In this document: piece after piece, positions 3,786-52,877 of the stretch
Layout of the letters: every line of letters begins with the position of its first letter
Position numbering within the stretch: position 1 is the first letter of the stretch
Source of the DNA: an uncultured Gammaproteobacteria bacterium
Lineage (GTDB): Bacteria > Patescibacteriota > Patescibacteriia > Buchananbacterales > UBA6539
Length of the DNA stretch: 64,000 bases
Direction: 5' to 3'
Assembly: GCA_964540635.1 (NCBI GenBank)
Contig: CAZINP010000001.1
Location: 9,540-73,539 of the forward strand
Made by a program: the position numbers and the translations under genes
The notes under the pieces: model-generated
What the model saw: only the letters and a program-made list of their open reading frames with translations
Told to the model about the DNA's origin: nothing
Databases searched by the model: none

Positions 3786-5099
3786 TTAGTTAAACATTAG
3801 CCAGCCCGGCTTAAAAATTAACAACAAACCAACTGTAAATAAAATTAATCCGCCTGCCAACCTGGAATATCTGGCATATTTCGTAGTAACTCCTGTCATC
3901 TCTAATGTTATCATTGCAAGTAAAAAGACAAAAATATCATCAAGCATAAAGAAAAAAATGTACAACAAAATCAAAAAATAATACTGCCAACTTGATAAAT
4001 TATTTAAAGCCAAGACTTGAGTATAGATCGCCGGCAAACCAGCCGAACAAACCAATTCAACCAAATTTACAACAAAGGCCAAAACGATAATGCCAAAAAT
4101 CGCTAAAATAAAATTTTTTTGTAAAGCTACCGCCTTTAATTTCTTAAAAACTTTTTGACGATTCTCACTATTAGTAACCTTGCAGCCACTGTCTTTATCT
4201 ACAAAAAATGCACGCACACTGTAAGAGCCCCCGGCCAAAGCGAATAAACCAACCAACAGTCTTACCCAAAAAACAAAGCCTAAAAATAAGATAAAGTTTA
4301 GCCATGCCGACATAAACAAAAAGTAAACCGAAGCCGACGCAACAATAAAAATAATTCCCAAAGTCCACATTCGCCTCTTATCTTCCATTCCCAGAAGCAA
4401 GCTGATTAAAAACAAAAGCGTCCATAAAGCGCAAGGATTGAATCCATCCAACGATCCTATAATCACCGCCAGGATCGGCAGAGAAAATTTAATTATATTT
4501 ACTTCTCCAAATATTGGCAACTTAATTCTTTGATCAACTCCACTCTCAGCTTCCCCCAAAAAATCCAATCCAACATTATCCTCAAATGGTTTATCTAATT
4601 CTTCCACTCCAGACTGTGTCGGCGTGTTTTGCTCAACGCTATCCACTTCTACAAATCCTTCTCTTATAGCATTTTCCTGGTAAGAAATCGTTTTTACGTT
4701 AACAATCTCGGCGACTGAATCGGGACATAATTCCTTGCTGCACTCTAAAACACGCTTTGATATCGCCGATGATGTCATACCATTGGCATATCCGATGAAA
4801 TAAGTATCACCAATCACCAAAAAAGGCACTCCATTGACTCCGGCGTTTAACTTTTCAGCTACCTTTTGCAAAATTTCTATATTGTCAAAATCGTTATAGA
4901 TTTCAAATTCAAAAACGTTCAAGTTGGGATAATTTTCCTTTAACTCACTATTTATAAACACTCTTTCAGCGCTACAGTGAGGACAAGTACTACCATAGAA
5001 AAGATAAGCGTTAACCGGAAATGTTACGGCTTTAACGGGAATTAAAACCAAGAAAAAAAATAAACTGATAGAAAATAAATATTTAAATAGATGTCTCAT
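3786..5099 (-). CDS. Thioredoxin-like (CPHC) domain fused to a CcdA/DsbD-type transmembrane thiol-disulfide transporter
   Basis: The N-terminus has a signal peptide and a YGSTCPHCSAE glutaredoxin/thioredoxin-like CxxC motif. The C-terminal multi-transmembrane core carries GFNPCALW and LVCSAGLP Cys motifs like the CcdA/DsbD beta domain. Confidence 0.65.
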   Translation of the reverse strand: MRHLFKYLFSISLFFFLVLIPVKAVTFPVNAYLFYGSTCPHCSAERVFINSELKENYPNLNVFEFEIYNDFDNIEILQKVAEKLNAGVNGVPFLVIGDTYFIGYANGMTSSAISKRVLECSKELCPDSVAEIVNVKTISYQENAIREGFVEVDSVEQNTPTQSGVEELDKPFEDNVGLDFLGEAESGVDQRIKLPIFGEVNIIKFSLPILAVIIGSLDGFNPCALWTLLFLISLLLGMEDKRRMWTLGIIFIVASASVYFLFMSAWLNFILFLGFVFWVRLLVGLFALAGGSYSVRAFFVDKDSGCKVTNSENRQKVFKKLKAVALQKNFILAIFGIIVLAFVVNLVELVCSAGLPAIYTQVLALNNLSSWQYYFLILLYIFFFMLDDIFVFLLAMITLEMTGVTTKYARYSRLAGGLILFTVGLLLIFKPGWLMFN

Positions 5100-5101
5100 G
5101 A

Positions 5102-5371
5102 TTATTTGTCTTTATTTGCGCTAATTATCTCAATCAATTTTTCTTTTTTAATTTCACCACTTAATCTTAAAAATTCTTTATTTTGACTGTCCAAAAAAAT
5201 AAAAACCGGTAAGTTTTCAACAACATTATATTTTTTTATCGCCTCCTTATCATTGTCAAAATCATAATATTCATTTTTTAACCATTCATTTTCCTTCTCA
5301 ATTTCTTTCCAAAGCGGCCTCATGACCAAGCAACCCGGGCACCAAACAGCACCAATTTTAATAACCTTCAT
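5102..5371 (-). CDS. Thioredoxin
   Basis: 89 aa with the canonical WCPGC active site. Confidence 0.8.
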   Translation of the reverse strand: MKVIKIGAVWCPGCLVMRPLWKEIEKENEWLKNEYYDFDNDKEAIKKYNVVENLPVFIFLDSQNKEFLRLSGEIKKEKLIEIISANKDK

Positions 5372-39544: not shown

Positions 39545-39621
39545 GCGCCTGTAGCTCAGTTGGTTAGAGCGCCACCCTTATAAGGTGGATGTCCCTGGTT
39601 CAAGTCCAGGCAGGCGCACCA
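39545..39621 (+). tRNA. tRNA-Ile, anticodon UAU (gene TAT)
   Basis: 77 nt cloverleaf with a 7-bp acceptor (GCGCCTG/CAGGCGC), anticodon stem CCACC/GGTGG, loop C-T-TAT-A-A and 3' CCA encoded. Confidence 0.8.
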
Positions 39622-43128: not shown

Positions 43129-44289
43129 CTACTCGGGCTGAATTTCAATCACTTCGCCACCGCCAAACTTGGAGTGGATTAAAACCGAAGGATTACGACC
43201 GGCTGGCGTGGGCAGAATCTTGCCGGCCACTTTTGCGGTTACACCAAACTTCACTGCCAAATGGCAGAATTGCGCAACGTCAGACTCATCAATGACAACC
43301 AGCATTCCCTGGCCGCAATTCCAGGTGTCGTAGCAGTCATTTACGGACATGCCACGCCAATCAGCGCAAAGCCGAACGATCTCCGGCGGCTCGAAAAGGT
43401 CGTCCAATATCGCCGAGAAACCCTGGGGAAAAAGAACGTCGCGGGCAAATTTGCTCTTGATTGAGCCGCCGGTAACGTGAGCAATCAAGTGCATCCTAAC
43501 CAGCGGCAGAAAGTCGGCTTCATACCAGCCGTGAAGCTTAGTCAAAAAGCAATCATACAAGAATGAGGGCACGGCAGCCGAACGAAGATGCTCCTTTGCC
43601 TCCGGCTCAATGGCCCAATTGTCGCCGAAACGCTTGGCAAAAGCTTTGCGCACAGAGCTGATGCCGTTGCTGCGAAACCCATTCTCTTGCAGAGCCACGA
43701 CAACTTGTCCGGGCGCCAAAGTGTCACCGAGAATCATTTTGTCCGGGTGGTAGGCACCGATTGCAAACCCGGACCAATTGTATTTTGCCGTAGCCGCCTC
43801 ATTGCTGGAACCAACACACACGCCAAGCTCGGCGGTTTCACCGCAAAGCATGACCATTTGGTTGTTGCCGCAAGCCACCATCAGGCCGTTAATCAACTGC
43901 CGAAAAGCCTGATTGGTTTGGTCTCCGGCTTGGCCAAGGGTGCAGACGTCCAAAACATTGCAGAAAACCAGAGGTATGCCACCCCAGCGCGTAATGTCAC
44001 CGGCCGTCATGGCCAGCACGTCTTTTCCGGAAGCAAAATGAAACCCTGCGGCATCAGAAATTATCACTTTGGTTCCGATTCCGTCCGGCGCACACGCCAA
44101 GCTACTGCCGGGCAGTAGGCCCTCAACGGTAAATCCACGAGGCCCGCGGAAGTGGCCACGAGAAAAATCATGGATCTTAACAAACGGGCTTGCCTCATAA
44201 GTTCCGCGGCAACACTTTGCCGCAAAGGCGCTAAAGCTATCGCCTTCTTTTACGTTTACACCATCCCGGGTGTAGGGATCATTGCTCAT
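43129..44289 (-). CDS. PurM-like (AIR synthase family) protein, GC-rich cassette
   Basis: PYTRDGVNV, DGIGTKV, CGETAE, SNGISSVRK, IAHVTGG and NCGQGM align to the PurM blocks. GC is about 55% in a roughly 40% GC genome. The start is taken at M28 of the track ORF. Confidence 0.7.
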   Translation of the reverse strand: MSNDPYTRDGVNVKEGDSFSAFAAKCCRGTYEASPFVKIHDFSRGHFRGPRGFTVEGLLPGSSLACAPDGIGTKVIISDAAGFHFASGKDVLAMTAGDITRWGGIPLVFCNVLDVCTLGQAGDQTNQAFRQLINGLMVACGNNQMVMLCGETAELGVCVGSSNEAATAKYNWSGFAIGAYHPDKMILGDTLAPGQVVVALQENGFRSNGISSVRKAFAKRFGDNWAIEPEAKEHLRSAAVPSFLYDCFLTKLHGWYEADFLPLVRMHLIAHVTGGSIKSKFARDVLFPQGFSAILDDLFEPPEIVRLCADWRGMSVNDCYDTWNCGQGMLVVIDESDVAQFCHLAVKFGVTAKVAGKILPTPAGRNPSVLIHSKFGGGEVIEIQPE

Positions 44290-44500
44290 TGTTTTCTCCT
44301 TTTCTGTAGTAGACAACACCGCCCACTTTTCTGGAAACAACCACCAAACGTTCTTTTTGAAGAGCCTCAATCGCTCTTTCCACCTCCTGGTGAGTACAAA
44401 AACCCAATGAGGCCGTTAGCGATCGCTTAAGAGCACAAACATTGCAGTCGCTGCTGTGCTCCAAAATCTTCAAAACTTCACCCTGTACATCCCTAGACAT
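44279..44500 (-). CDS. Small winged-helix-like protein, translationally coupled to the PurM-like gene
   Basis: 73 aa from the ATG at 44500, preceded by AAGGAAAGGAAA. The GC-rich part begins exactly here. The stop overlaps the PurM-like ATG (ATGAGCAATGA). Confidence 0.45.
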   Translation of the reverse strand: MSRDVQGEVLKILEHSSDCNVCALKRSLTASLGFCTHQEVERAIEALQKERLVVVSRKVGGVVYYRKGENNEQ

Positions 44501-48853: not shown

Positions 48854-50401
48854 ATGGACAACCCGGAGAAACAAGGTTATATACCAAGCCAAGAGCAGGA
48901 AAATGCAAACCAAGAAAAAAACGGATTTACTGAAAGCGTCAAAGCAATTGATGAGTTATATCAATTGGTTGTTGACGACGCAGATATGGAAGCAAATAAG
49001 GAAAAAATTCTTCAACTTACCGAAAGAATACTATCTGCATATAATGTATTGGATCATTTCAAAAGAGGTGATGAAGAAAAAGTGGAAGAAAACAATGTGA
49101 ATCCAGTTTCTCCTAAAATTCTGGAGCTACTCCCAACTCTTTCCAAAATGAAAGTAATTCATGGTGCGTTTTCAAAAAAAGATGAAAACGGGCAATCATT
49201 AATTGACAAAAATCCTCAATTAAATTTTTCAATCCGTTTGTTGGAAAGTGACATCAGATACATATTATATGATGGGATTTTACGTCTAGACAATAAAACT
49301 TTAACTGAAATTGATCCGCATCAAGCCAGGGATCTTCTTTTACTTCTTAGATTATCACTAGCCAAAGGCAATGACTCTGAGATAACTGATACGCTCAATT
49401 TTCTTAAAAATTATAAGAATTTATTTGAAAGACTCAATCAATCAAATGGTTCTTTGGAAATCGCAAATGAATATGCCAAACTTCAAGATTTCTTAGACAC
49501 CGAAGAATTTGCAAGAAACCTGATAAGATCATTACACTTTAAACAAACAACATCCAAATCAACTGACACATACCTTGAAAATCAAGAGGGACTCCTTGAA
49601 AGAATTTTTATCAAGTTCGGCCTGAAGCCTGAAGAATTTTATGACATCCTGGACGCATGGGATAGCTTCAATGACGAATCCCGTAAAGATAATATTTTAG
49701 AAGCAAACATGAATACAATCCTCGATTTGGAAAAAGCACGGCTCGGCATCATTGTATTGCTTTATAGAGAATTTGGCATTAGAAACTTTAATCGCTACCC
49801 AAAATCAATTTTAATTGCTCAATTTGACGAATTTAAAAATAATGAAAAGCCTTATGGAATAATCCTTCAGGCCACTCACGACTGGAATAGCGCTTTTTCT
49901 CACAACAATGATGTGTGGGAGGATTTATTCTCTCAAATTAAGGATCAATATGGCTTAAGAATTATTGAAGCCAAAAGCAGGACCGAAATTGCCAGGAATT
50001 TAATTAAACTTAACAGAAGATACGGAGCAAATCATAAAATATCTTTTGCGTTTATTGGTGGTCATGGCAGCAAAAATTCAATTACTCTCGGTAACGAGGA
50101 GGATGACTCTCGAATATTAATTGAAGATTTTTTAGGCAGAGGAGTAAAAAGATTAGGTAATTTTTTTGAACCGAACCCGACCATAGTCTTAAATTCATGT
50201 TCAACCGGAAAAATGGGCGGCATTGGTCAAAGGATGTCAGAAACATACGACACAAAAATAATTGCACCAAATATTCCCGCCTCTCTTAAGAAAATTAATG
50301 CCATAATTTCAAATGGAAATATTGATTTTGATATAAAGTATACAAAAAAAGGAAGAAACAAAAAAGTTGATCAAGCTTTTTCTTCCGGTAAAAAAATATA
50401 A
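48854..50401 (+). CDS. Hypothetical protein with N-terminal helical domain and C-terminal caspase-like (peptidase C14/CHAT-fold) candidate His-Cys dyad
   Basis: The C-terminal 200 aa follow caspase-fold topology: GIILQATHDW, then RIIEAKSRTEIARNLIKL, ISFAFIGGHGS, about 48 aa, then PTIVLNSCSTG. The His to Cys spacing is about 48 aa, as in caspases. The N-terminal 300 aa have no recognised domain. Confidence 0.4.
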   Translation: MDNPEKQGYIPSQEQENANQEKNGFTESVKAIDELYQLVVDDADMEANKEKILQLTERILSAYNVLDHFKRGDEEKVEENNVNPVSPKILELLPTLSKMKVIHGAFSKKDENGQSLIDKNPQLNFSIRLLESDIRYILYDGILRLDNKTLTEIDPHQARDLLLLLRLSLAKGNDSEITDTLNFLKNYKNLFERLNQSNGSLEIANEYAKLQDFLDTEEFARNLIRSLHFKQTTSKSTDTYLENQEGLLERIFIKFGLKPEEFYDILDAWDSFNDESRKDNILEANMNTILDLEKARLGIIVLLYREFGIRNFNRYPKSILIAQFDEFKNNEKPYGIILQATHDWNSAFSHNNDVWEDLFSQIKDQYGLRIIEAKSRTEIARNLIKLNRRYGANHKISFAFIGGHGSKNSITLGNEEDDSRILIEDFLGRGVKRLGNFFEPNPTIVLNSCSTGKMGGIGQRMSETYDTKIIAPNIPASLKKINAIISNGNIDFDIKYTKKGRNKKVDQAFSSGKKI

Positions 50402-50446: not shown

Positions 50447-50475
50447 TTGCGTGAATTTATAATTTATGCTATAAT
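50447..50475 (+). promoter_or_regulatory. Near-consensus sigma70 promoter
   Basis: TTGCGT, a 17-nt spacer and TATAAT lie about 60 nt upstream of the small basic ORF. Confidence 0.6.
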
Positions 50476-50535
50476 TAAGATAATCTAATTTATAAAGCTT
50501 CGATTTTTTTAAATCGTCGCTTAAAGGAGGTTATC

Positions 50536-50661
50536 ATGCCTGCAAAAAAGAAAGCGGCTAAGAAAAAGGTAGCAAAAAGAAAGCCGGCCAAAAAAGTAAC
50601 CAAGAAAAAGGTTGCTAAGAAAAAACCGGCTAAAAAGAAAGTAGCCAAAAAGAGAAGATAA
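50536..50661 (+). CDS. 41-aa Lys/Ala-rich basic peptide (histone H1/HctB-like KAKK repeats)
   Basis: MPAKKKAAKKKVAKRKPAKKVTKKKVAKKKPAKKKVAKKRR. A perfect SD AAAGGAGG lies 7 nt upstream, with the promoter above and a terminator below. It falls below the ORF-track length cutoff. Confidence 0.6.
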   Translation: MPAKKKAAKKKVAKRKPAKKVTKKKVAKKKPAKKKVAKKRR

Positions 50662-50677
50662 CATTCTCAATACAAAA

Positions 50678-50706
50678 ACACTCGACCAAAGCGCCGAGTG
50701 TTTTTG
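50678..50706. terminator. Rho-independent terminator (bidirectional)
   Basis: ACACTCGaccaaagcgcCGAGTGT-TTTTT. Confidence 0.65.
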
Positions 50707-50710
50707 ATTA

Positions 50711-51958
50711 TTAAATCAATTTGTCTTGTTTTGGTTTAACGGCTTTAATATTTACGCCAACCTTGCCATACACGCCATCATAACCCGGGGTAATTTTTAC
50801 ATTACCATTTCTTACAGCCAAAATTCCCTGAGCAATTTCTTTGGTGGTTATGTTTTTTAATTCCTCCGGAGTTTTATCAAGTAATATGGCAAACTCATTA
50901 TCACCCTTTTTTATCGCTTCAAAATAATAATTCATTACTTTTTTTGAAGCCTTGCCAACACCGTAAATGTCACTGATAATTTCAGCTAGAGGCACCAAAG
51001 ATTTATAACCAATTGTATCCAACTTATACCCAGCCGGCCTGTCAGCCAAAGCGGCGACTCGATTTAAACCGCCAATCGTCAAAGGTTTTTTGCAAACCGG
51101 ACAAATATTGTTTAATTTTTTTGACTCTTCCGGCAGAAGCGAAACCTTGCAAGCACCGTGACCATCAAGGTGATATTTTCCCTCTTCCGGATAAAATTCA
51201 ATGGTGTACAAAAATCTTTTTTTATCTTTTTTAATTAAAATCTGCGATAAATTATCAAAATCAAAATCATTTTTTACAAATTCAAAAACATTTGCCTCTC
51301 GGCCGAGATTGCTGGGAGAATGAGCATCGGAATTTGAAACCAAGGTAATTTTATCAAGTGCCGAAAGACGCCAATTCATTGGCGGGTCAGAAGATAGGCC
51401 GGTTTCAATCGCATAAATATATTTTTCATATTCGCCGAAACACTCACCTAAAGAATCAAATCCGGAGTATGAACCAAAAACCGAAAACCACGGCGTCCAA
51501 ACGTGAGCCGGGATTATTAATGTTTTTGGATTCACCCCAAAAACAATCGCCGCCAAATCTTTGGCAGATATTCCCATGATCGGTCGACCGTCTGATTTCA
51601 AATTTACCTTTCGCTTTTCCAATTCTAAAATTATTTTATCAACCGTCTCAAAATCAGGCGCTAAAAGACAAGTGTGGATACGTCGCGTTTTCCCTCCTTG
51701 AGAATAAATAGAAGAAAGTTCCGAGCTTAAAATAAAACGAGTTGAGTTTTTATCTGACTTCAACTTAAAAAATCCATTCTCGGCCGGCTGCAACTTTGAC
51801 TTTAATTCTTTAAGCCAGGCCGGATGCGTAAAGTCGCCGGTAGCGACCAAATCAATCCCCTTTATTTTTGCCCATTCGTTTATGTGTTCCAAATCTAAAT
51901 CTTTCGAGCAAGCGCGCGAATATTTTGAATGGATGTGGAGGTCGGCAATAATTCTCAT
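50711..51958 (-). CDS. PHP-domain protein with internal Cys4 zinc-ribbon, endonuclease Q-like
   Basis: The N-terminal metal-binding motif ADLHIHSKYSRACS, an internal CPVCKKPLT zinc ribbon and a C-terminal helical region match the EndoQ/TIGR00375-like architecture. Confidence 0.45.
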   Translation of the reverse strand: MRIIADLHIHSKYSRACSKDLDLEHINEWAKIKGIDLVATGDFTHPAWLKELKSKLQPAENGFFKLKSDKNSTRFILSSELSSIYSQGGKTRRIHTCLLAPDFETVDKIILELEKRKVNLKSDGRPIMGISAKDLAAIVFGVNPKTLIIPAHVWTPWFSVFGSYSGFDSLGECFGEYEKYIYAIETGLSSDPPMNWRLSALDKITLVSNSDAHSPSNLGREANVFEFVKNDFDFDNLSQILIKKDKKRFLYTIEFYPEEGKYHLDGHGACKVSLLPEESKKLNNICPVCKKPLTIGGLNRVAALADRPAGYKLDTIGYKSLVPLAEIISDIYGVGKASKKVMNYYFEAIKKGDNEFAILLDKTPEELKNITTKEIAQGILAVRNGNVKITPGYDGVYGKVGVNIKAVKPKQDKLI

Positions 51959-52049: not shown

Positions 52050-52877
52050 TTAAAAGCATCGCCAATTTTTCAAATGAACATCAACTTCTTGACCGAAACC
52101 GGCCGTTTTCACGTCTTCCAGGGCCGACAAAACGTGAAGAGCATGGGTGCCAAAACGCTCAACTCGATCCTCCTTGTTCGAAGGCGAGTATTCACGATTA
52201 AGCAAACCCAATTCACTGTGATTTTGGTAGATGGCCGGATGCGGCACTTCTACCACTTCTACCGAACCGCCCTCAAAGAGGTAAGAAAGCTTGACCAGCC
52301 CCTCAAGGCAAGTGCCGTAGCGTTCAAGCTTGAGCTCGTGTCCCAAGAAACTTGCAACCAACGCCGGCATAGCCCAGAAACCACTTAAAGGATCAGTGAT
52401 GTCTTTCCATTTTGTTACTGAACGGATGATCGCCGTAAAAGCAACGTTGAGCAAATCGCGGTCAAGGGGCGTGCCATAGCGTTCAGATTCGGGGTGATAG
52501 CGCGAACCGATCACCAAACGAGGCAAATCATCAACACGCAAGCGCGCCAGGATCGGTTCAAGCAAATTGACGTCGTGCTGACCATCAGAATCCATGGTGA
52601 CCAGATAGTCATAACCTTGCTTAACCGTACGCTCATACAGGCGTCGCAGCGAATAGCCCAAGCCGATGTTGCCATTGTTTGAAAGCAGCTTGACCCTATC
52701 GCCAAAAGACAAGACCACATCTTGAGTGTCGTCGTTTGAACCGTCATCGACGACGCAGACATCAAACTCAAGATCTTTGATCGTGCTAGTCACCGCCAGC
52801 AAACGCGGCAAAAAAACTTTCAGGGAAGTTCCCTCATTGCAGGCCGGAACGCCTATCAGACAAACTTTTTTTCTCAT
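52050..52877 (-). CDS. GT2-family glycosyltransferase (DPM1/polyprenol-phosphate glycosyltransferase-like), GC-rich
   Basis: PACNEG, VVDDGSNDDT and TMDSDGQHD (DxD) are present. GC is about 50% against a roughly 40% background. Confidence 0.75.
   Translation of the reverse strand: MRKKVCLIGVPACNEGTSLKVFLPRLLAVTSTIKDLEFDVCVVDDGSNDDTQDVVLSFGDRVKLLSNNGNIGLGYSLRRLYERTVKQGYDYLVTMDSDGQHDVNLLEPILARLRVDDLPRLVIGSRYHPESERYGTPLDRDLLNVAFTAIIRSVTKWKDITDPLSGFWAMPALVASFLGHELKLERYGTCLEGLVKLSYLFEGGSVEVVEVPHPAIYQNHSELGLLNREYSPSNKEDRVERFGTHALHVLSALEDVKTAGFGQEVDVHLKNWRCF

Follow-up and report, generated by a model that had tools for sequence, protein, structure and literature searches.

A probable free-standing gene for a 41-residue lysine-pentad microprotein in a CPR bacterium

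Within a 64,000-nucleotide stretch of Patescibacteria/CPR DNA (hereafter the window), we identified a complete mini-gene at 50447-50706 whose promoter, 5'-UTR hairpin, Shine-Dalgarno sequence (SD), 41-codon ORF and terminator can all be read from the sequence. We conclude that this is a real gene encoding a polycationic microprotein, and we put at roughly 0.6 the fuller reading, in which a monocistronic, efficiently translated gene produces a disordered 41-residue polycation that acts electrostatically on nucleic acid. An earlier sequence-only reading of the window had proposed a genuine, independently transcribed and strongly SD-led mini-gene here, a proposal borne out by the gene's own promoter and terminator and by conservation of the ORF elsewhere. 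The parts it had named, TTGCGT, a 17-nt spacer, TATAAT, an SD, an ORF at 50536-50661 and a bidirectional terminator, are all present where it had placed them. The features of the locus and its neighbours are as follows.

48854-50401 (+): gene for a 515-aa protein, 134 nt upstream of the mini-ORF and on the same strand; no Pfam family
50447-50452 (+): -35-like hexamer TTGCGT, matching TTGACA at 3 of 6 positions, with a 17-nt spacer to the -10
50467-50475 (+): extended -10 TGCTATAAT, with TATAAT at 50470-50475 preceded by TG
50495-50522 (+): 5'-UTR hairpin AAGC..CGATTT-TTTT-AAATCG..GCTT, ending directly 5' of the SD
50523-50531 (+): Shine-Dalgarno sequence AAAGGAGGT, 4-5 nt upstream of the ATG at 50536
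50536-50661 (+): 41-codon ORF MPAKKKAAKKKVAKRKPAKKVTKKKVAKKKPAKKKVAKKRR, with its ATG at 50536 and a TAA stop at 50659-50661
50673-50706 (both strands): bidirectional intrinsic terminator, a 12-bp stem with A5 on its 5' side and T5 on its 3' side
50711-51958 (-): gene for a 415-aa Endonuclease Q (EndoQ) homologue (phmmer E 2e-54 to PfuEndoQ 5zb8/7k30; TIGR00375; MJ0043_C)

The -35-like hexamer was not picked up by a generic consensus promoter scan because, with only 3 of 6 positions matching TTGACA, it is too weak. In the window, 12 copies of the extended -10 motif TGNTATAAT were found where 2.9 were expected, a four-fold excess that 0 of 100 shuffles reached, and the majority lie just 5' of genes or tRNAs. 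This points to TGNTATAAT as the organism's preferred promoter form and suggests that its promoters typically pair an extended -10 with a weak -35 box. The sites include 14, 5664(-), 6049, 12391, 39441, 50467 and 60736(-). As a separate observation on the tRNAs of the window, ARAGORN predicted a tRNA-Ile at 39545-39621(+) with the anticodon TAT (UAU); the usual bacterial solution for AUA is a CAU/lysidine tRNA-Ile2.

Both ends of the predicted transcript fold more stably than shuffled sequence. The 5'-UTR region (50482-50545) has an MFE of -15.8 kcal/mol (z -3.6), with 0 of 200 shuffles folding equally well, and its hairpin may act as a stabiliser or regulator of the mRNA; an Rfam search of the mini-gene locus and this hairpin returned chance-level matches only and no family. 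The terminator (dG -15.4, z -5.7; again 0 of 200 shuffles folding equally well) is common to the mini-gene and the convergent Endonuclease Q gene, whose end lies at 50711. We considered and rejected a lysine-codon leader or attenuator, since a terminator and a convergent gene follow the ORF and there is no downstream gene to regulate.

The SD core AAAGGAGG occupies 50523-50530, 5 nt from the ATG, and the full match to the anti-SD complement is AAGGAGGT. The spacing of 4-5 nt corrects the 7 nt given by the sequence-only reading, which was right that such sites are rare on the neighbouring genes: 44 of the 58 long ORFs in the window have no SD match of at least 4 nt, and a match of at least 7 nt occurs in only two of the 58, at 43129-44370(-) and in a GT2 gene at 52050-52877(-). 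SD-like motifs nevertheless mark 7 of 58 gene starts against a background of 2.7% (4.4-fold enriched, p=0.001), and because of this enrichment the SD mechanism probably works in the organism, with the mini-ORF as one of its few strong users. Only 48% of Parcubacteria have a detectable anti-SD motif, about half being without it (PMC9297842). A second AAGGAGG, at 5242(-), was examined as the possible start of a further mini-gene and set aside, as it lies within a thioredoxin-like ORF.

How much of this could arise by chance was assessed element by element. AAGGAGG occurs 7 times in the window against 6.7 expected, which is chance frequency, and the T-poor tract that carries the ORF stays open in one frame in 16% of mononucleotide shuffles. 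No single element exceeds chance; what is significant is that the elements occur together and are conserved elsewhere. Codon choice adds a further feature. AAG supplies 9 of the 21 Lys codons in the mini-ORF compared with 22% genome-wide, and AAA-AAA encodes 71% of KK pairs in ordinary genes. The longest A-run in the mini-ORF is 6 (P=0.005 under genomic codon usage), a ceiling to be expected if slippery poly(A) is selected against in an expressed frame, and T is absent from codon position 1. The mini-ORF was called as a gene on the Logan copy of the contig and is apparently absent among NCBI proteins.

The encoded peptide is almost pure repeat. Its 41 residues include 21 K, 3 R, 8 A, 4 V, 3 P and 1 T, so that 59% are Lys or Arg and none is acidic; the product is 4.6 kDa in size and its net charge is about +24. 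It can be divided into eight pentads of the [A/V/P][A/T]KKK type (AKKK, AAKKK, VAKRK, PAKK, VTKKK, VAKKK, PAKKK and VAKKRR). AF2 predicted no secondary structure (pTM 0.14), and the sequence has no signal peptide, leader or hydrophobic face. Because the peptide is of low complexity, standard homology tools find nothing significant: phmmer returned zero matches against 5.8 G clustered proteins and against 1.84 G representatives, a blank probably due to HMMER's composition correction, and searches of Pfam, NCBIfam, PHROGs and PDB sequences gave only sub-threshold matches to HC2 and NF038053. That the peptide is highly expressed, binds nucleic acid and serves in the nucleoid is inferred.

We therefore scanned a metagenome collection with a degenerate-codon pattern that covered the 14 N-terminal residues; with 29 of its positions fixed and 7 two-fold, chance matches should be negligible. 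Seven loci were recovered, each a stand-alone ORF of 17-41 aa starting MPAKKKAAKKKVAK, one of them cut by a contig end. These ORFs use K, A and V only (plus P, T or G) and lie on contigs of 37-62% GC, their codons differing while the peptide stays constant. Although the pattern required neither, a strong SD and a hairpin terminator accompany most of the seven. A profile built from the scan peptides retrieved 14 further short K-pentad proteins, several with over-extended called starts, and at 9 of 11 other loci (scan loci together with related mini-ORFs from the profile search) the SD match is at least 6 nt, several of these loci also having hairpin terminators. Stand-alone relatives were found in L129-L136 and L142; one of them, MPAKKKAAKKKVAKKKAAKKKVAKKKPAKKKVAKKAAKRRR from L130, is also 41 aa long, ends KRRR and is 95% identical to the window peptide in alignment. 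If a provisional group is drawn to include ORFs of at most 45 aa that consist only of xxKKK pentads, start M(P/A)AKKK and have their own SD and terminator, the window gene falls within it, and relatives of like layout were seen. The patterns and profiles used for retrieval enforced the N-terminus or the composition, and such low-complexity similarity may be convergent rather than homologous.

Several relatives showed features of their own. Two from GC-rich lineages, at L136 ~4990-5075 and L142 ~236-322, have in common a 5' leader hairpin, AGCACCCC...GGGGTGCT, before the SD AAGGAG; Rfam searches of these two leaders gave chance-level matches only. L142 looks chimeric, with an overall GC of 0.33 and a similarity to L136 that ends inside the ORF. 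At L145/L146 4001-4189, a 62-aa protein begins with the same kind of N-terminus, MPAKKKAAKKKVAKKK, continues into a motif rich in Cys, RCSATTKEGKRCKR...CSSH, and has a second K-rich tail, so that the K-pentad module also occurs joined to a putative zinc-binding element. SD-led stand-alone mini-ORFs of 31-38 aa made of Lys, Ala, Pro and Thr were also seen on phage contigs (L038/L049, L040/L048, L104/L116 and L144). The one at L144 3727-3843 encodes 38 aa and lies directly 3' of the major capsid gene, a position that would fit a packaged DNA-neutralising peptide.

One relative stands in the same place as the window gene. L141 is a second CPR genome, of 45% GC, whose EndoQ is 53% identical to that of the window. 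Its mini-ORF, MPAKKKATKKKVTKKKVTKKKATKKKVTKKKVTKKKKR (beginning MPAKKKATKKKVTKKK...; 38 aa; entry P0042 from the profile search), has the same position and orientation as the window's, convergent with endoQ and with the terminator in common. An SD, GAGGAGGT, lies 6 nt before its ATG and an extended -10, TGTTATACT, lies upstream, and PolyA_pol and TrmB genes are found near the mini-gene in both L141 and the window. When the two loci are aligned, the coding part aligns and the flanks do not. An internal duplication of 45 nt in the L141 gene illustrates how the number of repeats changes, and the upstream neighbour of this gene is a divergent RRM gene. Together with the stand-alone mini-ORFs at 37-62% GC, this positional counterpart answers the question of whether the ORF, rather than only the nucleotide sequence, is conserved, in favour of the ORF.

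The link to EndoQ is otherwise loose. The best relatives of a neighbouring gene are in Kuenenbacteria and Magasanikbacteria MAGs (~55% identity), and the presence of EndoQ, a DNA-repair nuclease, in a CPR bacterium is an observation in itself, homologues being found in many Patescibacteria and DPANN MAGs. The mini-ORF was in place at none of 16 GTDB EndoQ loci, so that, counting L141, 1 of 17 EndoQ-homologue loci keeps it, and the remaining relatives beyond L141 lie in unrelated gene contexts. Judging by these contexts, the mini-gene is a free-standing gene without a fixed partner, because EndoQ loci mostly lack the ORF and the relatives' surroundings are unrelated. In a separate Candidatus Kuenenbacteria contig (L004 7223-7492(-)), a longer KAAPKK(R)K-repeat ORF runs off the contig end ~2 kb from the EndoQ homologue of that genome, so that a further CPR member seems to encode an H1-like Lys/Ala/Pro protein of larger size.

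The upstream 515-aa gene was also examined as a partner, as the sequence-only reading had called its product caspase-like and the peptide its possible partner. About 31 homologues were found, at identities of up to 43%. The protein is all-helical in its N-terminal region and ends in an alpha/beta domain with invariant G403-H404-G405 and S448-C449-S450 (GHG...SCST), a His404/Cys449 dyad. Foldseek searches with its AF2 model (pLDDT 80.7) gave weak but repeated matches to clan-CD peptidases (TcdA CPD, caspases 4, 7, 8 and 11, and SAVED-CHAT; E>=0.03). The dyad and the fold matches speak for the caspase-like label, and the weakness of those matches leaves it short of established; we regard it as plausible but weak. 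A partnership is not supported, because no K-rich ORF lies near any of the three 515-aa homologues whose surroundings were inspected; at L141, moreover, the gene upstream is the divergent RRM gene.

We propose that transcription would start at the extended -10 promoter and yield an mRNA of ~220 nt, with the 5' hairpin followed by the strong SD, and would end at the strong terminator shared with the convergent Endonuclease Q gene. The peptide would then most likely act by charge, as a counter-ion encoded in the genome that binds nucleic acid and condenses it, in the manner of Bordetella BpH1, of the Lys/Ala pentamers in chlamydial Hc2 and of the Lys-rich tails found on HU, Ku and PhaF. Chromosomal DNA is the candidate primary target, and RNA is possible. 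Pentads would be gained and lost through in-frame repeat slippage, which would explain the spread of lengths from 17 to 41 aa among the relatives.

Other readings were weighed against this one, the main rival being a role at the ribosome or on RNA. Since the gene is tiny, extremely basic and strongly SD-driven, its product might instead be a ribosome- or rRNA-associated microprotein, a trans-acting equivalent of basic tails or of bTHX, bS22, bL37 and eL41 that neutralises rRNA charge. The idea was prompted by the lineage-specific Ala/Lys-rich C-terminal extension of ~25 aa on Parcubacteria uS19 (PMC9297842), which indicates that A/K-rich segments are in use on CPR ribosomes; in addition, Hc2 and the disordered region of PhaF bind RNA too, and the upstream neighbour at L141 encodes an RRM protein. 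We consider this reading unlikely, as a length of 17-41 aa with free repeat expansion is atypical for a fixed ribosomal site, no PDB chain matches at E<=10, and the mini-gene lies outside any ribosomal-protein operon. It is more improbable still that the A-rich tract is non-coding, either an ncRNA or a spacer open by chance whose signals are chance matches in AT-rich intergenic DNA. The 16% of shuffles that stay open, the chance frequency of AAGGAGG, the poor -35 and the apparent absence of the ORF among NCBI proteins would all fit such a tract, but the peptide start, SD spacing, stop and terminator recur at 37-62% GC with other codons, L141 has a positional orthologue, A-runs do not exceed 6 (P=0.005), codon position 1 is free of T, and no Rfam family was found.

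The remaining readings give the peptide, or its strand, a different role. The 515-aa protein might use it as a partner, substrate or regulator: the genes are adjacent on the same strand with 134 nt between them, the invariant His404/Cys449 and the weak fold matches to caspases, TcdA CPD and CHAT suggest a clan-CD peptidase, and some clan-CD enzymes cut after Lys or Arg. We disfavour this and think it scarcely credible, given the mini-gene's own promoter and terminator, the three 515-aa homologues in contexts free of any K-rich ORF, and the different upstream gene of the L141 orthologue and unrelated contexts of other relatives. CPR bacteria are commonly episymbionts, and an exported polycationic antimicrobial or cell-penetrating effector acting on the host is conceivable; Lys-rich disordered peptides from Ku tails are described as cell-penetrating (PMC10739243). 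Against such an effector, which we rate as very improbable, the peptide lacks a signal peptide, a leader and a hydrophobic face, its neighbours include neither a transporter nor an immunity gene, and relatives occur in many non-CPR contexts and in phages. Finally, the product could come from the other strand, where Phe/Leu-rich hydrophobic ORFs at 50490-50648(-) and 50521-50670(-) could encode, for example, a type I toxin-like membrane peptide. Both are open, a similar one is open in L130, and the terminator is bidirectional. A K/A/V/P ORF makes antisense frames nearly stop-free by construction, however; these ORFs have TTG starts and no SD, their C-termini enter the non-conserved 5' UTR of the sense gene, and all loci carry their SD and ATG on the strand that encodes Lys. 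We rejected them as by-products of the sense composition and see hardly any chance that they are the true product.

If the peptide is abundant, it would be a chromatin or RNA-neutralising component that has gone uncounted, and it would weigh most in bacteria with small cell volume, extreme nucleic-acid packing and few known nucleoid proteins. The locus also exposes a systematic blind spot: the gene falls under ORF-length cut-offs and is removed by low-complexity filters, and a simple degenerate-codon pattern recovered relatives over a wide GC range and in phages where phmmer gave none. For the study of selective SD use in Patescibacteria the gene is a convenient test case, its SD being strong in a genome otherwise poor in such sites. 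The main value of the finding lies in a probably widespread, overlooked class of polycationic microproteins, along with this clean instance of selective SD use. More speculatively, and as a possibility we hold only tentatively, these may form a cross-phylum and essentially unannotated class of 17-41-aa polylysine-pentad "bacterial protamines", each with its own promoter, strong SD and terminator, serving as abundant DNA/RNA counter-ions in the cells of ultra-small CPR bacteria, in Gram-negative lineages that are GC-rich and in phage particles; size cut-offs and low-complexity filters would have kept the class out of sight of gene callers and of HMM or BLAST searches. The literature we searched contained no paper on stand-alone K-pentad microproteins or on H1-like proteins in Patescibacteria.

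The nearest known systems are the histone H1-like and Hc2-type proteins, to which the sequence-only reading had likened the peptide. That likeness holds at the level of composition, and HC2 and NF038053 were its sole database matches; membership of the HctB, AlgP or H1 families does not follow. The window peptide scores 10.4 bits (E 0.7) against Pfam PF07382 HC2, whose cutoff is 40, and 10.3 bits (E 0.6) against NCBIfam NF038053 (Burkholderiales histone H1-like), whose cutoff is 80; the L130 relative scores 12.7 bits against HC2 and the L141 relative has no match to it. As in Hc2 (HctB) and BpH1, Lys-rich pentamers follow one another consecutively, the other residues are Ala, Val, Thr or Pro, acidic residues are absent, and length changes by in-frame gain and loss of repeats. 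Proteins of these families bind DNA and RNA by charge, and the pentamers of Hc2, made of basic and A/V/T/P residues, bind both and contain 2 basic residues each (PMC2848022), compared with 3 in the window peptide. Proteins of the Hc2/BpH1 type are 150-240 aa long, with 36-aa super-repeats and conserved flanking regions, whereas the window peptide reaches at most one quarter of the Hc2 size and lacks a flanking domain; set against the Hc2 architecture of 165-237 aa with 36-aa repeat elements and flanks, the window peptide has 41 aa and its relatives 17-41 aa. With eukaryotic linker histones H1/H5, in which Lys-rich tails surround a globular winged-helix domain, it has in common only a composition like that of their C-terminal tail, there being no Pfam Linker_histone match and no predicted structure.

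The disordered Lys/Ala/Pro repeats of AlgP, of the PhaF KPAA region and of the PAKKA tails of mycobacterial HupB/MDP1 and Ku, which bind polyanions, are similar in kind. For AlgP the sites of action are DNA and polyphosphate granules (PMC9239181); PhaF, like AlgP a Pseudomonas protein, binds RNA via the lysines of its disordered KPAA region (PMC12818456), and the Ku tail modulates DNA binding (PMC3553676). The repeats of AlgP, PhaF, HupB and Ku are tails on folded domains, built of 4-5-residue units with 1-2 Lys each, whereas in the window peptide the repeat is the whole protein and the unit is xxKKK; it contains three PAKK motifs, no KPAA array and no other domain.

In size class and extreme basicity the peptide resembles bTHX, bS22, bL37 and eL41, which have fixed lengths and specific sequences, whereas the window peptide varies in repeat number; no PDB chain, ribosome structures included, matches it at E<=10. 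Coxiella burnetii ScvA is a basic DNA-binding peptide of ~30 aa that is specific to the small-cell variant and tied to condensed chromatin. Like the window peptide it is a stand-alone, very small and very basic bacterial peptide, although ScvA is Arg/Gln-rich, has no Lys/Ala pentads and is found in Coxiella only, and the comparison is one of description, with no sequence relationship expected. ScvA is abundant in proteomes (PMC6759588). The phage mini-ORFs, at 31-38 aa, resemble the window gene in starting MPAKKK or MATKK, in being SD-led and in using Lys and small residues only; Pro and Thr are more frequent in their repeat units (PAVKK, TTAKK), and homology to the window peptide is inseparable from convergence. 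By analogy with these systems, the peptide most likely works like the H1-like and Hc2-type nucleic-acid binders while standing outside those families.
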